Shown here one piece after another: positions 10,775 through 61,995 of a DNA stretch of 64,000 nt (positions are counted from its first letter, which is position 1; every line of letters begins with the position of its first letter). Made by a program: the position numbers and the translations under genes. The notes under the pieces are model-generated. The model was not told the origin of the DNA. It saw only the letters and a list, made by a program, of their open reading frames with translations, and did no database searches. Source of the stretch: Mizuhopecten yessoensis (Eukaryota); assembly GCF_002113885.1 (NCBI RefSeq), contig NW_018408322.1:1531562-1595561 (forward strand). The letters run 5' to 3'.

Positions 10775-11797
10775 AGAAATAGAGGTTACACAACGAGTGG
10801 TTGTTGAATATTGTATTTATTTCACTCGAGTTGGTTAATTTTCAAAAGTTACAAATGATACGAGCTTTAGCGAGTGTCTTTTTTGTAACTTTTGAAAATT
10901 AACTAACGAGAGTGAAATCAATACCATACTCAACAACCACGAGTCGTGTGATCTGTTTCTACCACAATCTCATGATCAGTCGGAAAAAACATACACACGT
11001 GTATTTGTTGACAAGTCTGGCGTAGTGATATGACCCATATGTAAAAAGTCACTCATTAATATTCAAAAACAATTTCTTTTTTTTACAAATTCAATAATTG
11101 TCAAAATTAATGTTTCGGATACAACTTTATGAAAAAAAATATAATAGATGAACGACTTTAAATATTGAGAGTAGCCGAATCTCATTGATTTATATAAATT
11201 AACCACGGACTATATGCGCGTAAGCATATCGTACGAAGTCTGCCACATGCCAAGTGACGAACTTATCGCTGTCAATGTCCAAAACCATAGGCCTATGTTT
11301 CTTCTTGACGGTTCTATGGTTGACGTTTATAGTGAGGTTCAGCCATAGTCAGGCCGTCCAAATAGCGATAACGGGACGTTGGGAGAACGAAATATTTTCC
11401 GACACTGTGGCAGATCTTAATTTGTTTTGGTTTCACGACCTGGACACGCGACGGTGACGTCGAAATGATACCAATCGTCTGTAGCAATTTTGCCTGAAAC
11501 TAGCGATCGAATCTTTAAGTATCATCTTCTTTTAATATTGCCTTAATAACCCCCTTTTCCTCATAACCTCACAAAGTCACCAACATTTGTAGGATGTTGA
11601 TAGCAGACGACGAAAACAAAACAGCATGTGGCAAAAAGCATGTGGAAAAAGTAGTCCCGGTCAAAGTTCATCTTCTCGACCAATCAAAACTCTTGCAGGT
11701 CATATACCACGTGTGGTATATAACTCATATTTATCTAGCAGTCTGCGTGTTTATACAATGATCTGAGAGTGGAATAATACAGCGTATTGTGGTAGAA
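10775..11797. mobile_element. Non-autonomous Crypton-like element with terminal hairpin
   Basis: ~185-nt imperfect palindrome 10775-10960; TTCTACCACAAT (10957-10968) is inverted at the far end as ATTGTGGTAGAA (11786-11797); 4-bp AGAA direct repeat at both ends; CCAATCAAAAC motif near the right end. Superfamily is inferred from architecture only. Confidence 0.6.
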
Positions 11798-12214
11798 TAC
11801 ACCTTATCCTCGGATGTTTCCTATTCAATATATATATAAATCAATGAACAAAACTTTCATTTGAATAAACACTAGCTTATAAAGATGACTCGCAAAACGT
11901 ATATCTGATTGACTCAAGGTCAATGCAGTCTAAGAACAAGTGTTGCTGGGTTACTGGATGTTAAGAAATGCGAACATTTAAATGTAAATGATCAGGCCAA
12001 TACATTCGATACTACCTGATCACCGCTACACCTTTCTTATGGTTCAAGAAATGCTAGCCGAAGCTGGGCACTTTGCTACTCCGGTTTAAGATGTGACTCC
12101 GCACTGTTTGTGTCTCTGTTTAACCGTTTTAATAAATCTGTTTACTTGTTGTTGTTATTGTTTTATGACGCTGACTATCAACTGTGTCCCTGAACAATGT
12201 CGCTTCTTTATGTG

Positions 12215-12444
12215 TTTGGTTTGTTTGTGTTTTACGTCCTGTTAACAGCTATGGTCATTTAATGACGTGCCAGGTGTTTGTGGTGGTTGTGGTGGTGGAA
12301 AGCTGGAGTTCCCGGAGAAAAACCACCAAACTACGGCACGTCCCTGGCGTCTGACACACGTAGGGTCGAACCGTCGACCTAGCGGTCAAGGGCTAGAAGT
12401 AACAGAATGTCAGACGCTTAACCACTTGGCCAACGTGCCACACA
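12215..12444 (-). mobile_element. tRNA-derived V-domain SINE, full length with TSD
   Basis: On the minus strand: A box TGGCCAAGTGG, B box GGTTCGACCC, V-like core GGTTTTTCTCCGGGAACTCCAGCTTTCCACCACC, tail AAATGACCATAGCTGTTAACAGGACGTAAAAC. 11-bp TSD TTCTTTATGTG at 12204-12214 and 12445-12455. Confidence 0.85.
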
Positions 12445-19026: not shown

Positions 19027-19258
19027 TTTTTGGTTTAATTTGTTTGTGAATTACGTCCTATTAACAGCAATGGTCATTTAAGGACGTGCCAGATTTTGGT
19101 GGTGGAGGCAAGCCAGAGTTCCCGGAGAAAAACACCGACCTGCGGCCAGTACCTGGCGACTGCCCCACGTAGGTCTCGAACCCGCGACCAAGTGGTGGAG
19201 GGTTAGTGGTAGCAGAATGTCAGACGCCTTAACCACTTGGCCAAAGCGATCACTTAAT
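19027..19258 (-). mobile_element. tRNA-derived V-domain SINE, full length
   Basis: Same family as 12215-12444; A box TGGCCAAGTGG, B box GGTTCGAGACC; candidate TSD GAGGAAGA at 19019-19026 and 19259-19266. Confidence 0.85.
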
Positions 19259-24392: not shown

Positions 24393-25343
24393 AAAATTGA
24401 TTACACGTACACACGGAATACTTATAATAACTTGCAGCACTGGTTGTGGGGAAACCTTCAATGTTGCACATCTTGGTTTAGTGGCGGAGTTTGCCAACCC
24501 CCACTAAGGCTTATGGCCACCAACTAATGTATTTGTTTTACTTTATATATGATAATGCTATGCTGTACTTGTCAGATGTTTGACATCGTCATGTTTGGGT
24601 ATTATTTGTTTGAAAATATATTAAAAGTCACCAAACGGTGACCTTTTTCACTCATATGTTCTTTTGGTTGTTTATGTGACAGGACGGAAAGTGCATAAAA
24701 GGCAGCTAAGCACTTAGCTTAATTTATGCATCTGGAGTCGTGCACATAACCACTTTATTTGAATAAATAAAATTAAGAAAAATAGGTTTCGAAGAGTTGT
24801 CTCCCATGCATAAAAGCTAGGGATAGGAAGAGTTACTCGCCTTGAATTAAGAGCCGAGGATTGTGGGTAATCTGCATTGAGCGCGCCATTGAGAAAATTT
24901 GTAAACAGCGCGCCATTGAGAAAATTTATAAACAAAAAGGTCACACAGTGCAAAACTATTGTGTTAACCATTCTAAGTACAGACCTAGTCTGGTATACCT
25001 TCCGAAGTTTTTAACCCACCCACTTCCTCCCCTCTTCTTCTTTGTGAGAAATGCATTTTAACACAATATCTAAGTGGCGGAGTTTGCCAACCCCCACTAA
25101 GGCTTATGGCCACCAACTAATGTATTTGTTTTACTTTATATATGATAATGCTATGCTGTACTTGTCAGATGTTTGACATCGTCATGTTTGGGTATTATTT
25201 GTTTGAAAATATATTAAAAGTCACCAAACGGTGACCTTTTTCACTCATATGTTCTTTTGGTTGTTAATGTGACAGGACGGAAAGTGCATAAAATTGATTA
25301 CACGTACACACGGAATACTTATAATAAATTGCAGCACTGGTTG
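24393..25343. repeat. Nested direct duplication A-B-core-B-A
   Basis: B (~221 bp) at 24480-24700 and 25073-25293 with 1 mismatch seen; A (~53 bp) at 24393-24445 and ~25290-25343 with 1 mismatch; 27-bp tandem duplication at 24880-24933. Confidence 0.9.
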
Positions 25344-27174: not shown

Positions 27175-28232
27175 GTTTGGTTTCTTTGACCTCTCATTTT
27201 GTTTAACGTCCTATTAACAGCGAAGGTCATTTGTGGACGTGCAGATGTGTGTTGTGCATGCGTGCATGTCTGTATGTGTGCCATAGACGGATCATGTTTA
27301 TGTTGGTGAACTTGCCTCCTTGTGATAGCGCGGATCTGATGCCGACTTTATAGTGCTATCTCACTGAAACACAATGAAGAAGGCACACAGAAAAGCATCC
27401 CACCCCGTCATATTATACTGACAAGGGGTTAACCAGTCGTTGCCATTCCCTTTAAGGGGCTGGTCGGGGAAAAAATGTCATATTTGCTAAAATGGCATCC
27501 ACAAGTTTAAAATACCTTCTTATGAAATATACCGATTCAAATTTTGCTGAAATTCACTCCCTAAGAGTAAAAATTATAATTATATAAAGAAATCCTAAAT
27601 CGTTACCTGGCAGTCTAAACCTCTCAATTGACCCAGATCAGTGATGTAATTTTACCGCATGCGAGTCATCAACAAGGCCAAATGTAAACATCGCGGCGAA
27701 AGAAAAAGATGCATGCAAAAGTCATGACAGGCACGAGGTATCAATACCGTTATATATAACAACAACTTATAGGTAGGAATACTACACTTGAATCATACAT
27801 GACCTTTGAAAAGAATTATTTACGTATAGTATATTGCTGTCTTGTCCGCTAGTTGAGTCCGACATGGCTGATAGAAGGCGTGCTATTATTGTTATCTTCA
27901 CTGCCTCACTTTCGAAACAACCACATAACATATATAAATAGATCTGCGCAAAATTTACGCGGGGCTTCCCTGAAATTTCCGTGGTCAAAACTGGACATTG
28001 CAAGTAGAACTCGACCATCAAACTGCCGTGGTATATCTTTTGGAAGGCCAGAGAACGCATTTAACCCTTTAAATGCTGAACCATAAGCAGAAAAAAGCAA
28101 CAACCATTTTGAAGGACTGTGGTATGTTCCGGCCTGAGGACAGAACACATTGCCTTCTTCACCTGGACGAACACTCAATATTAAAGCCAGAAGTGAGGCT
28201 TTGCAAAGTAAGGTGCTAGTAAATAAAAGGTA
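27175..28232 (-). mobile_element. Meta-domain SINE (family B) split by a later insertion
   Basis: Tail and body at 27175-27455 continue collinearly at 28073-28232 (CCATTCCCTTTAA|ATGCTGAAC..AAGCAG) when compared with the intact copies at 41275-41758 and 61517-61995. Confidence 0.8.
27456..28068. mobile_element. Non-autonomous DNA transposon inserted at TTAA (Kolobok-like or 8-bp-TSD type)
   Basis: Interrupts the SINE; CCCTTTAA occurs on both sides (27448-27455, 28065-28072); weak subterminal inverted similarity (CCTTC....A.ATATACC). Confidence 0.6.
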
Positions 28233-41274: not shown

Positions 41275-41758
41275 TTAGTTTAGTTTTATTTTGTCCAAGC
41301 TAAGGTCATTTAAGGACGTGCCTCCATGTATGTATTGTATGCGTGCTTTCGTTTGAGTGCAGGAGACAGGGTATGTTGGTGTGCCTGCCTCCTTGCGATA
41401 GCGCGGATCTGATGCCGATCACTATCTGATAGTGATATATGTATTTCACTTAAATGCCATGCCGAAGCATTCCAAAAGCCCGGTCACATTGCACTGAAAA
41501 TGGGTGAATCAGTTGTTGCCATTCTCCATAATGCTGGACGTAAAGCAGGGAATAACAGCTACCATTTTTAAACAAAATGTGGTATGTCCCGGCCTCGGGA
41601 CATAACCTATTGCCTTCCTAACATGGGCGAACGCTCAAAAGTAAAGCCAAAAGTGAGGTATTGCCTTGCAAAGCGCTAGGAAATTAAAGATAGTAAGAAG
41701 TAGAAAGAAAGATAAAGATCCCAAATATTGCAATGGGCGCAGAAGATTTATTTTAGTA
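41275..41758 (-). mobile_element. Meta-domain SINE (family B), near full length
   Basis: Collinear with 61517-61995: tail, Meta body, degenerate tRNA region, and a leader that is pyrimidine-rich on the element's own (minus) strand. Confidence 0.8.
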
Positions 41759-46422: not shown

Positions 46423-49310
46423 TAGCTTAAAGAGAGCAACAGTGACATTAACGTTGATCTTTGGACCTTACTTCTTAACATTCGTAGTAACCTTTGATTA
46501 GTATCTGTTAAGAAAAGAAGCTGGCAGAGCTGTAACAAAGAATGACGTCGGGAGGCGCCAGGTCTGATGTGAATACTGCTGTACGCCCGATGGGAAAACA
46601 AGTTGATGCATCAGACATACATTGCATATCACCAACTGTAGCGAATGTACATTTACATTGATGCAATATTTCTATATTTCCAAAATCGTTTCAATGTCGA
46701 AATAAAAGCCATTTATAATGTACATTCACCTTATGGAGTACCTTAAATAGCATTCTGGAGAAAAATAAAAATGAAGGTTTTTACTACAATGCACCTCCTT
46801 AGCTGGATATTAAAGGGTTGCTTAGAGAAAGGGGAAAATTGCGTGATTAGGGTAAAGCCAGTTAGGACCGAAGCTATTCTCCGAAAATGGCTTGAACACG
46901 TGTTTTGAATGAAAACCGCCGAACGCCGCATTACGACAACAAGGAGCCCCACTGTAACCTAAATTAACACGGCCGTTGAGACTCTCCAAAAGGAAATGAG
47001 GAAGGGGATAACACGGAGAAACATTAATGGTGAATCCTCACATCTTCAATGTTATAGAACGATACCAGTTAGTCGCGGTCAGGTCAGTTCCGAGATCACA
47101 AGGTCATGTGGATGTATGCTATTCATGTGAACTATCTATAAATAATTCAAGCTTTTGAATAATTAAATGATTACGTTTGCAGTCTCTGATCATGCCTAAA
47201 TTCTCCATACGTTTTCTTTCATGTCGACAGCTATATAATATTGATTTTATGTATGTGATTTTATTTAAACCCATTAGGTACAAAGGCTATGATAAGGTAT
47301 ACGTTCTATGTACACGTCAGGCTAGCCAAACCAAAAGTAAAGCGTTGTGTATGCTATCATGCTTTTAGAACAGACGACCCCAAAAATACAATGACAAACA
47401 GATACAAACCCGAAACATGATATGATAAATTAGATCATGGCAAAATATCCATAAATAGTACTTAACAAATATCACAAAAAGCGGCGTTTTTTTCTATTCG
47501 GACTGAATCATAAACAGGAAACGCACAACCAGCACATATGATTTTTGAACACATACAAACAGACTCACAGCGTAAGATCAGGGTCGGATTTGCCAACATC
47601 ATGCTATTCTTTCACTGCTTACATGCAATTGCGAGATAAGTAGAGGTGAAACGGGTTTAACCCACCTGTGTGTAAAAACCATGCCCTCTGGCGCCAGTAA
47701 GGCCGCTTTGGCATTGAACATCATTCACACGAAACCGAAACATCAATAGATCGGAAACTTGGCTATGTGTCAAAAATTATTTTCAAAAGTTTTAAAATCA
47801 TACTCGGTTTATATCCTCACGTATAGTGTGTCTATATTTGTCGCGACCTTTCGCGTGACATGATGCTATTATAGTTTTCCCATATCACATTCTTTATGTG
47901 AAATAAATTGGAATGTTTGATGTCTGCCTTGATGCAATTGTGATTATCTGGTCTTAGCCAACATAAAAACGTGCCAGTTTATAGGGTTCTAGATCTGAGT
48001 CGGACGAAGATACTTGATTTGGGTGTACAAATTACCTGTACGGTTTATTTGTTTAGAGTTTTACGTTATGATGGATTGAAATAAGGGACCACTTAAAACT
48101 GCCATGTCACTGAAATGTCATAAATTCAACAAGGAAGCATGATACAAATTACAGAGGTACGATTCTTAGCAACCGCCGAGAATCAAGATACTAAGAAAGT
48201 TTTTTGCAGTGCTTTGAATTATAAATTACATATTCATACAGTGAAATAAGAATCGGTATTTCAAGTTAACTCAACAACATCTGTGACGGAAGGTATATCC
48301 AACAAATTTTAATATCTTATAAAAGCCCATAGAAAAAGGAGACATTAACTGGGACACCTGCAGGAATGTTTTCCACGACATCTGCTTTGTACAAAAATCT
48401 GTAGGTGCCAGGGAATGGAAATATTTTATATGCCGGCAGCTTTACCTCTCAAACTCATAAATAAATGGTTTACAAGATATTAAAGTGGTCAGTTTGACAT
48501 TTGACCCTTTAACCTTGACAGATGACCACCAAAAGCTGATCAGCTATCGAGCTCAATGTTACCATACTATGATACATGAATATATACATGTAGGGCTCGT
48601 GAGATATATACTATATGCCTCTCTGTAATTGGAGGTACATTTAGAGGCGGCCGCCAAATAAAATATTTTCATTTCGTGGCACCTACGGGTTTCCGTAGCT
48701 TCGGAGCACCCACGGAGAATTCGCAGTTCTTTACGTAGTACTTGCTATTCTGTCATCTGGATCACTATATATAATAACAAATGTTTTAATGTCCATCGCA
48801 CCTGAATCACTGTTCTTTTTATACGTGAATGGGATCCTTCTAATGCATGCTGTACAGTAACACCTTTGTCCAGAGAAATATTTGAATGGTAAAGAGGTTG
48901 AGCGATATATTAAGAGAAAAATAATTTCTAAGAAAAGTACTTAGAAATTGGTTTGTGGCTAAGCAAGAATGTACAGAACCCGTTTCTTGAATTATATATA
49001 TGAAAAGACAGATCAAACTAATATAATGACAGCATACTTTAAGATCAGTAAATGTAACGCTACCTATCTATATGTAGTGACACAAAATTAGAATTATATG
49101 ACATTTTACTTCCCCTTGTATCTTAGTTGAAATGGAACTGTGCGCAAGGTGATATGTGGGCATCTTAACTAACTCCGATTCATTTGCATCGGGCAACCGC
49201 AAACATTGCTATCCACTAAATTATATGTTCAGGAGGACTCGCGGAGTACCCACGAATATTTGAGATAACACAGTACAGCATAACATTTGATCGCACGGAA
49301 CTGTATATGA

Positions 49311-61516: not shown

Positions 61517-61995
61517 AAGATCCTATCCATCCACCCTTTTACTTGTTTTCTGTCAACTTCTAACTACCTTTTATTTAATAACGCCTTGCTTGGCAACACC
61601 TCACTTTTGGCTTTAATGTTGATCGTTCGTCCAGGTAAGGAAGGCAATGGGTTCTGTCCCCAAGCCGGGACATACCAAAGGCCTTAAAAATGGCAGTTGT
61701 TATTCCCTGCTTAACGTTCAGTATTTAGGGAAATGACAACAGCTGGTTCACCCATTGTCAGTATATTGTGACCGGGCGGAATGCTGTGCTGGGTTCCTTC
61801 GGCATGGTATTTCAGTGAGATAGGACTATAAAGTCGGCATCAGATCTGCGCTATCACAAAAAGCCAAGCACCCCAACATACCATGTCTCCTGCATACACA
61901 CACGCAAACACGTATACACTACACACATAGAGGCAAGCCTTAAATTACCTTAGCTGTTAAAAGGACGTTAAACAAAATTAGAGCTGAACCAAACC
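61517..61995 (+). mobile_element. Meta-domain SINE (family B), near full length
   Basis: Pyrimidine-rich leader, degenerate tRNA region, Meta-like TTGTCAGTATATTGTGACCGGGCGG..TTTCAGTGAGATAGGACTATAAA, tail CCTTAGCTGTTAAAAGGACGTTAAACAAAA. Confidence 0.85.

Follow-up and report, generated by a model that had tools for sequence, protein, structure and literature searches.

A probable Crypton derivative in Mizuhopecten yessoensis carries an internal complement of both its ends, with hairpin mismatches that point to single-strand folding

The closest described relatives of the element reported here are CryptonA and its derivatives (Kojima and Jurka 2011, PMC3212892). As described there, these transposons possess a single DUF3504 gene and have no reverse transcriptase (RT), terminal inverted repeat (TIR) or target-site duplication (TSD), deletion derivatives far outnumber coding copies, and terminal repeats are reported to be lacking in animal Cryptons. 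According to a 2026 review (PMC13565253), Crypton transposition has not yet been demonstrated experimentally and a double-stranded circle is assumed. The other close comparison is the retroelement DIRS-1, which also relies on a tyrosine recombinase, inserts into related elements and, as PMC7192593 describes, carries an internal complementary region (ICR), an inner segment complementary to the start of its left end and to the end of its right end. The element analysed here, taken together with its coding relatives, resembles CryptonA in its recombinase gene, in the lack of RT, TIR and TSD and in the excess of deletion derivatives, and DIRS-1 in the three features just named; it has an end design that we did not find described in the literature on Crypton ends and mechanism, where Repbase Reports and older Crypton papers might mention hairpins.

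The DNA that was analysed, hereafter the window, is a stretch of 64,000 nucleotides from contig NW_018408322.1. Positions 10779 to 11797 of its + strand are occupied by a dispersed repeat of 1019 bp that begins with ATAGAGG and ends with GGTAGAA. The exact 18-nt right end is present 252 times in the 988-Mb assembly (0 times for a reversed-sequence control), and full-length copies in a DNA search of the genome, in which the best 40 of 887 candidates were scored, are 88-94% identical. Both termini were set by alignment of copies, including the last 12 nt, ATTGTGGTAGAA (11786-11797, +), and both coincide with loose ends at which contigs of other sequencing runs break, before 10779 in 23 contigs of run X3 and behind 11797 in 35-37 contigs of runs X1, X3 and X5. 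A preliminary description had placed the element at 10775-11797; its right end is retained, and its left end is moved to 10779 by the copies and contigs. There is no coding frame within 10779-11797, all stop-to-stop frames being short, and no terminal inverted repeat. The pairings that were found are all inner, and the inverted ends of DIRS elements are thus absent.

Short derivatives with the same ends were observed at L139:6640-7091 (453 bp) and in L247 (202 bp), the latter without the inner segment described below. The window also contains a 221-nt direct repeat (24480-24700 and 25073-25293), 100% identical and 593 bp apart, a small element-like stretch with 51-nt inverted ends of 80% identity (48390-48697), which served as a control, and several diverged copies of other dispersed repeats, in both orientations, at 12214-12326, 19033-19136, 27186-27455, 41298-41710 and 61547-61995.

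The feature of central interest is an internal complementary segment at 10945-10968 (+). Its reverse complement, ATTGTGGTAGAAACAGATCACACG, opens with the same 12 nt that close the element and goes on as a near copy of the left end; 10945-10956 can therefore pair with the left terminus and 10957-10968 with the right terminus. A right-end match of at least 12 nt arose by chance in 4 of 20,000 shuffles. The segment forms the inner foot of a left hairpin of about 190 nt (arms 10783-10855 and 10882-10954), for which the DNA fold has a z-score of -10, equalled in 0 of 200 shuffles. Taken to its full extent, arm 1 (10779-10865, +) begins at the left terminus, with a G.T wobble and a 2-nt GG bulge no more than 7 nt away, and arm 2, defined by sequence, family alignment and mismatch count, covers 10870-10956 (+). 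The tip (10860-10876, +) consists of a tandem G.A (10862-63 with 10872-73), a stem of 2-3 bp and a short T-rich loop, and further tandem G.A pairs interrupt the arms at 10828-29 with 10908-09 and 10795-96 with 10941-42 (CGAG opposite CGAG). When the whole + strand is folded, the right 12 nt are paired with the inner segment in both the minimum free energy (MFE) and the centroid structures. Each column of 10945-10968 is kept in at least 29 of 30 copies, and the inner motif is present in 42 of 47 further copies. The proposals that the element carries an inverted internal copy of its own end-to-end junction, that this one segment is able to pair with both termini, and that its geometry resembles the DIRS ICR, an internal region complementary to both termini, are thus upheld, the second of them as a prediction from the folds.

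The reasoning by which that junction had been deduced does not survive comparison of copies. It was supposed that the two ends share AGAA as a terminal direct repeat, of which empty sites would keep one. We rejected AGAA as a terminal repeat: of 26 copies 3 have it before the left end, of 47 further copies 4 do, 7 of 73 in all, and it is target DNA. In the window it occupies 10775-10778 (+), as the 5' half of the target site, and it happens to resemble the right end; the consensus for the family is A[T/G]AW, and the preceding 4-mers are led by ATAT (15/47) and ATAA (8/47). Behind the right end, 51 of 60 copies, drawn from the 100 listed of the 252 places, have A as the next base, and the window copy has T. 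Judged from these flanks, the target is close to A[T/G]AW|A and is usually entered without target duplication, and it is this target, instead of one AGAA, that would remain at an empty site. Because A[T/G]AW|A loosely resembles the junction AGAA|ATA, the predicted junction was right despite the wrong reasoning.

The absence of duplication is seen in a related family, A, where a contig of run X3 passes over precisely the 2148 bp of the element, and no bases are gained at insertions into the tandem arrays L011 and L141. The exceptions are L014, with 4 extra bases, and L061, with a 48-bp duplication plus 2 bases on the right side. The latter (L061:4020-6178) is a young family A copy in which the target duplication is perfect and present at the right junction only; this may be a scar left by insertion or a product of the assembly. 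One-sided insertion scars were considered as a general feature and rejected, as L061 is a single case and the 4 flank repeats flagged in 47 further copies resemble tandem arrays or offset repeats.

An autonomous partner was sought around Pfam DUF3504 matches, 150 of 383 candidates in the genome having been scored. Among the first 60 regions fetched, L101 contains an element of 3007 bp that agrees with the window copy in both ends and in the inner segment. Alignment of the two (query 5-591 and 593-1023) covers the first 590 and the last 430 bases of the L101 element, with 86-88% identity over aligned columns; the window copy lacks a middle of about 2 kb, the deletion point lying at 11365-11367. 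That middle encodes a broken, intron-bearing DUF3504 recombinase (E 1e-17), fragments of which show the R, HxxR and GH..Y motifs. The partner copies found for the family of the window element are broken, and no intact direct parent was found among about 80 coding-related regions. L101 is a close relative and not the direct parent, and the window copy is a deletion derivative of the L101 lineage; a sister subfamily (L140-L142, L145, L090) has its outer terminal bases in common with the window family. The 1-kb gene-less element is almost certainly derived from a DUF3504 tyrosine-recombinase Crypton.

In five other families with long open frames the catalytic R, R, H and Y are invariant (5/5) and the first H is present in 2/5; relatives match DUF3504 with E values of 1e-21 to 1e-33, and also Phage_integrase and, mostly, QRICH1. 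A structural model of the family A recombinase (mean pLDDT 62) has Cre as its best match (E 5e-8), which would make the enzyme Cre-like. No RT, Rep-helicase or DDE domain was present in the 8 frames scanned, those of families A, B, C, E and F being without RT, and the partners of 2.1-3.0 kb that were examined contain recombinase frames only, with neither RT/RH nor gag. The conjecture that a Crypton-type tyrosine recombinase, and not a Helentron or DDE transposon, would prove to be the partner is therefore supported by L101. The features of a Crypton are present, namely a DUF3504 recombinase in the partner, the catalytic residues and the lack of RT, TIR and TSD, without the 4-6 bp direct repeat found at the termini of fungal and oomycete members; assignment to the CryptonA type is provisional and follows from the Pfam and QRICH1 likeness. 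Family A (L061-L066) is itself a young, intronless Crypton of 2.15 kb, with a 506-aa open frame and copies that are 98-99.8% identical; it is polymorphic in one run, and contigs from an RNA run cover it end to end. Retroelement frames of 1173 aa and 1179 aa, by eye of LTR type and LINE type, lie beside Crypton copies in L077:6481-10000 and L071:6158-9697.

If the inner segment serves to hold the two ends, it should change with them. In each of 10 DUF3504 families the inner segment could be aligned to its own right end plus left end, and the design is common to the ten families while the sequences differ. The inner segment therefore co-varies with both ends, as had been predicted. The match to the family's own right end extends over 9-15 nt, in some cases with 1-2 mismatches, and in family F over 22 nt with mismatches. 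In 8 of the 10 families the far end was fixed independently by copy alignments; families H and I are single copies, so that the far end there rests on the inner match itself. Families G and J were left out as their far ends are unreliable, and family K (L098) was not recovered in the 10-family alignment. In 10/10 families the pairing is disturbed, no more than a few bases 3' of the junction, by a wobble, a mismatch or a bulge. Metagenome contigs provided a second sample, in which 80 loci with related genes yielded 23 hand-picked hairpins, a set that excluded simple repeats, short internal hairpins of about 70 nt and several without a far side. Among the 22 testable recombinase-linked hairpins, 9 have a far-side match of 11-21 nt, compared with 3 of 88 control windows, and in the other 13 a far-end match of at least 11 nt is absent; a few related families account for most of the 9. 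In viral contigs there were 0 relatives among 99 pattern matches.

A further regularity, which the preliminary description had not recognized, concerns the mismatches within the hairpin. On the strand that reads hairpin first, G.A mismatches number 49 and C.T mismatches 6 in 9 families, and the stems are broken by CGAG opposite CGAG. When tandem sites alone are counted, there are 15 G.A and 0 C.T in 10 families and 41 G.A and 9 C.T in 28 metagenome hairpins, with 0 and 0 in 7 unrelated inverted repeats used as controls. Since the families are related, the counts of mismatches and of the design overstate independence. The bias is opposite in 3 of the 28 metagenome hairpins, which may be true flips or the result of assembly, and 5 of the 28 have no tandem site. 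Hairpin cores in reversed orientation, with C.T in place of G.A, were observed in L010:1479-1700 and in metagenome loci L156, L159, L164 and L183, and may reflect true flip-flop or assembly error. Tandem G.A pairs in a CGAG context are stable in folded DNA and their C.T complement is not. Sheared G.A pairs in mini-hairpins are treated in PMC13037366. Other measures are uninformative or speak against the bias. ViennaRNA energies hardly separate the strands, the top being more stable in 7/10 families and the bottom in 3/10, including that of the window element; the bias of G.T over A.C (16 and 11) is not significant; and loop type shows no consistent strand bias, family E having a GCGAAGC mini-hairpin loop on the strand without G.A.

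G.A mismatches favour the hairpin-first strand both where that strand carries the gene (families B, D and H) and where the gene is on the opposite one (A, C, E, F and L101). In family D a GT-AG intron on the hairpin-first strand is kept in 4/4 copies. Because the biased strand is independent of gene direction and this intron is retained on the folding strand, a fold of the mRNA is unlikely, and we argue for DNA rather than RNA. Strand-specific imperfections together with an unpaired region beside the crossover, as in attC and CTXphi sites, are both present. The strand-biased G.A pattern points to single-strand folding, insofar as this can be judged from sequence.

A circular intermediate would contain the right end joined to the left end. 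The exact 25-nt junction that had been predicted occurs 2 times in the assembly, and each occurrence joins the right end of the sister subfamily to the left end of the window family; head-to-tail 25-mers within the family itself are absent from the assembly as exact matches. Joins of a relative's right end to a left end were found in L007/L149, L295, L233 and L089 and in metagenome loci L161 and L201. At each of these the insertion point of one element is the exact right end of a related Crypton, so that members of different families lie head to tail. These cases demonstrate that such a junction can arise and that the right ends of relatives are used as targets, and do not reveal free circles. 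No end-to-start joint of the window family or of family A was found among the joints listed in contigs of 4 runs for each; contigs drop rare molecules, and this result does not speak for an absence of circles. One rearranged copy, duplicated 32 kb apart (L293:850-1780, L294:1489-1730), has 3 extra bases behind the right end and then the first 194 bases in reverse complement, the arrangement expected if the right end snapped back onto the inner segment.

Since one inner segment mirrors the joined ends and the strand that carries it is predicted to fold, such transposons are likely to move as a folded single strand, by a route already known in bacterial integrons. We lean, with a little better than even confidence, to the view that the recombinase acts on the folded hairpin-first strand while the inner segment holds both ends together. 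The top strand would fold where single-stranded DNA is exposed, or by extrusion as a cruciform, and the 12-bp duplex with the right end would provide one recombinase binding arm and the hairpin foot the other. Cuts at flank|ATAG and AGAA|flank, followed by one strand exchange, would free the element as a closed circle of single-stranded DNA, the flanks being rejoined on the same strand. The folded junction would enter a double-stranded target, also by a single strand exchange; the bulge beside the cut would block a second exchange, and replication would complete the insertion. Copies without a gene would use the recombinase in trans. The length of the duplex agrees with the binding arm of 11-13 bp given in PMC3212892, and because the 12-bp duplex is arm-sized and unpaired bases occur at the spacer position, as they do in attC (PMC2727003) and in the folded CTXphi attP (PMC4246890), cutting of the folded top strand is favoured. 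Against this must be set the distance between the ends. Pairing ends that are 0.8-3 kb apart needs more single-stranded DNA than the eukaryotic lagging strand usually exposes, and we count this against the single-strand model.

The folded site could also arise by cruciform extrusion from a double-stranded circle, and this leads to the alternative that excision proceeds by an ordinary double-stranded circle, with the top-strand arm of a cruciform on the supercoiled circle used as the integration site only. Such a route explains the strand bias without kilobases of single-stranded DNA, is in keeping with the clean empty allele of family A and is the Crypton model assumed in the 2026 review (PMC13565253). 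However, the ends share about 1 base at the crossover, which is little for a two-strand exchange, and the 12-nt inner complement is placed exactly to splint the ends before any circle exists, so that we regard this alternative as rather unlikely. Less probable again, in our estimation, is a DIRS-like repair, in which a linear single strand, peeled off or copied from the element, is splinted by the inner segment for ligation or priming, the circle is converted to a duplex and the recombinase acts on the duplex junction only. The geometry is that of the DIRS-1 ICR, which according to PMC7192593 is essential for retrotransposition and is modelled in this way, and the rearranged copy with its right end joined to the hairpin's reverse complement has the form of a snap-back, although that copy records a single event, later duplicated. 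But no encoded enzyme would make the linear strand, and a splint should pair perfectly across a nick, whereas all ten families are imperfect just 3' of the junction.

The two remaining readings seem to us very improbable. In one, an RT borrowed from a DIRS-type element acts on an RNA, and the fold is a structure of that RNA or of its cDNA. The end-to-end coverage of family A by RNA-run contigs would fit, although transcription itself is only putative. Tandem G.A pairs are stable in RNA too, which we count in favour of this route. Its difficulties are the retained intron of family D, a folding strand that takes no account of gene direction and the lack of RT in the family A, B, C, E and F proteins. 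The other reading, to which we give equally little credence, holds that template switching produced the mirror incidentally or that the mirror represents double-stranded binding sites only. Rearranged hairpins do occur (L010, L293), and recombinase sites are inverted repeats; but a by-product would not be expected to keep its design across 10 families as the sequence changes, and oriented tandem G.A pairs, which the control inverted repeats lack, would be meaningless in a duplex. As a whole, the comparison leaves recombination on the folded single strand as the reading that we prefer.

Because the end design specifies a strand, a substrate and the places of cutting, the mechanism is directly testable with the young and intact family A. 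The fold also offers curators a rule for locating the ends of Cryptons, which in animals have been reported as featureless. If excision and integration do occur on a single strand, eukaryotes would possess a counterpart to the recombination of integron cassettes, and if the enzyme reads the fold and a loose A/T target, it would constitute a compact eukaryotic integrase for single-stranded DNA.

It remains to place the element among the systems that it resembles. Helitron2 and Helentron elements likewise have a hairpin, an asymmetric inverted repeat and no TSD, but the partner here encodes a tyrosine recombinase and not a Rep-helicase, the hairpin is far longer, and insertion occurs before A and not T, so that the element does not belong with them. 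The integron attC site (PMC2727003) is also a hairpin that is selective for one strand, contains extrahelical bases and a spacer left unpaired, and is recognized by a tyrosine recombinase, as would be the case here. It differs in being bacterial, in having a single hairpin in each cassette and in its fixed target, attI, whereas here the far end completes the site, targets are loose and the enzyme, according to its structural model, appears nearer to Cre than to IntI. In CTXphi attP(+) (PMC4246890), a folded strand of about 150 nt is similarly the site, and one exchange is finished by replication. There, however, the phage strand is provided by rolling circle, the host XerC/D act on it, there is one target and no excision; no Rep is encoded here. 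The bacterial elements SE-6283 and SE-6945 (PMC9345347) also have tyrosine recombinases that circularise one element strand, but they have four genes and 19-bp inverted ends, and the att sites of SE-6945 are without a detected hairpin.

Compared with CryptonA as described in PMC3212892, the present element is distinguished by its long hairpin at the left, by an inner segment complementary to both ends and by mismatches that favour one strand, and it lacks the short terminal direct repeat of the fungal and oomycete Cryptons. Compared with DIRS-1, it has no RT/RH, no gag and no inverted terminal repeats at both ends. Its inner segment adjoins the left end and runs into a hairpin arm of about 90 bp. 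Across the junction this segment has imperfections, while PMC7192593 describes the ICR of DIRS-1 as exact. The end design nevertheless provides a structural link between Cryptons and DIRS elements. It is a tentative suggestion, to which we assign somewhat less than an even chance, that animal Cryptons are self-splinting single-strand transposons with a Cre-like enzyme, and that the DIRS ICR goes back to a DNA ancestor of this kind that acquired an RT.
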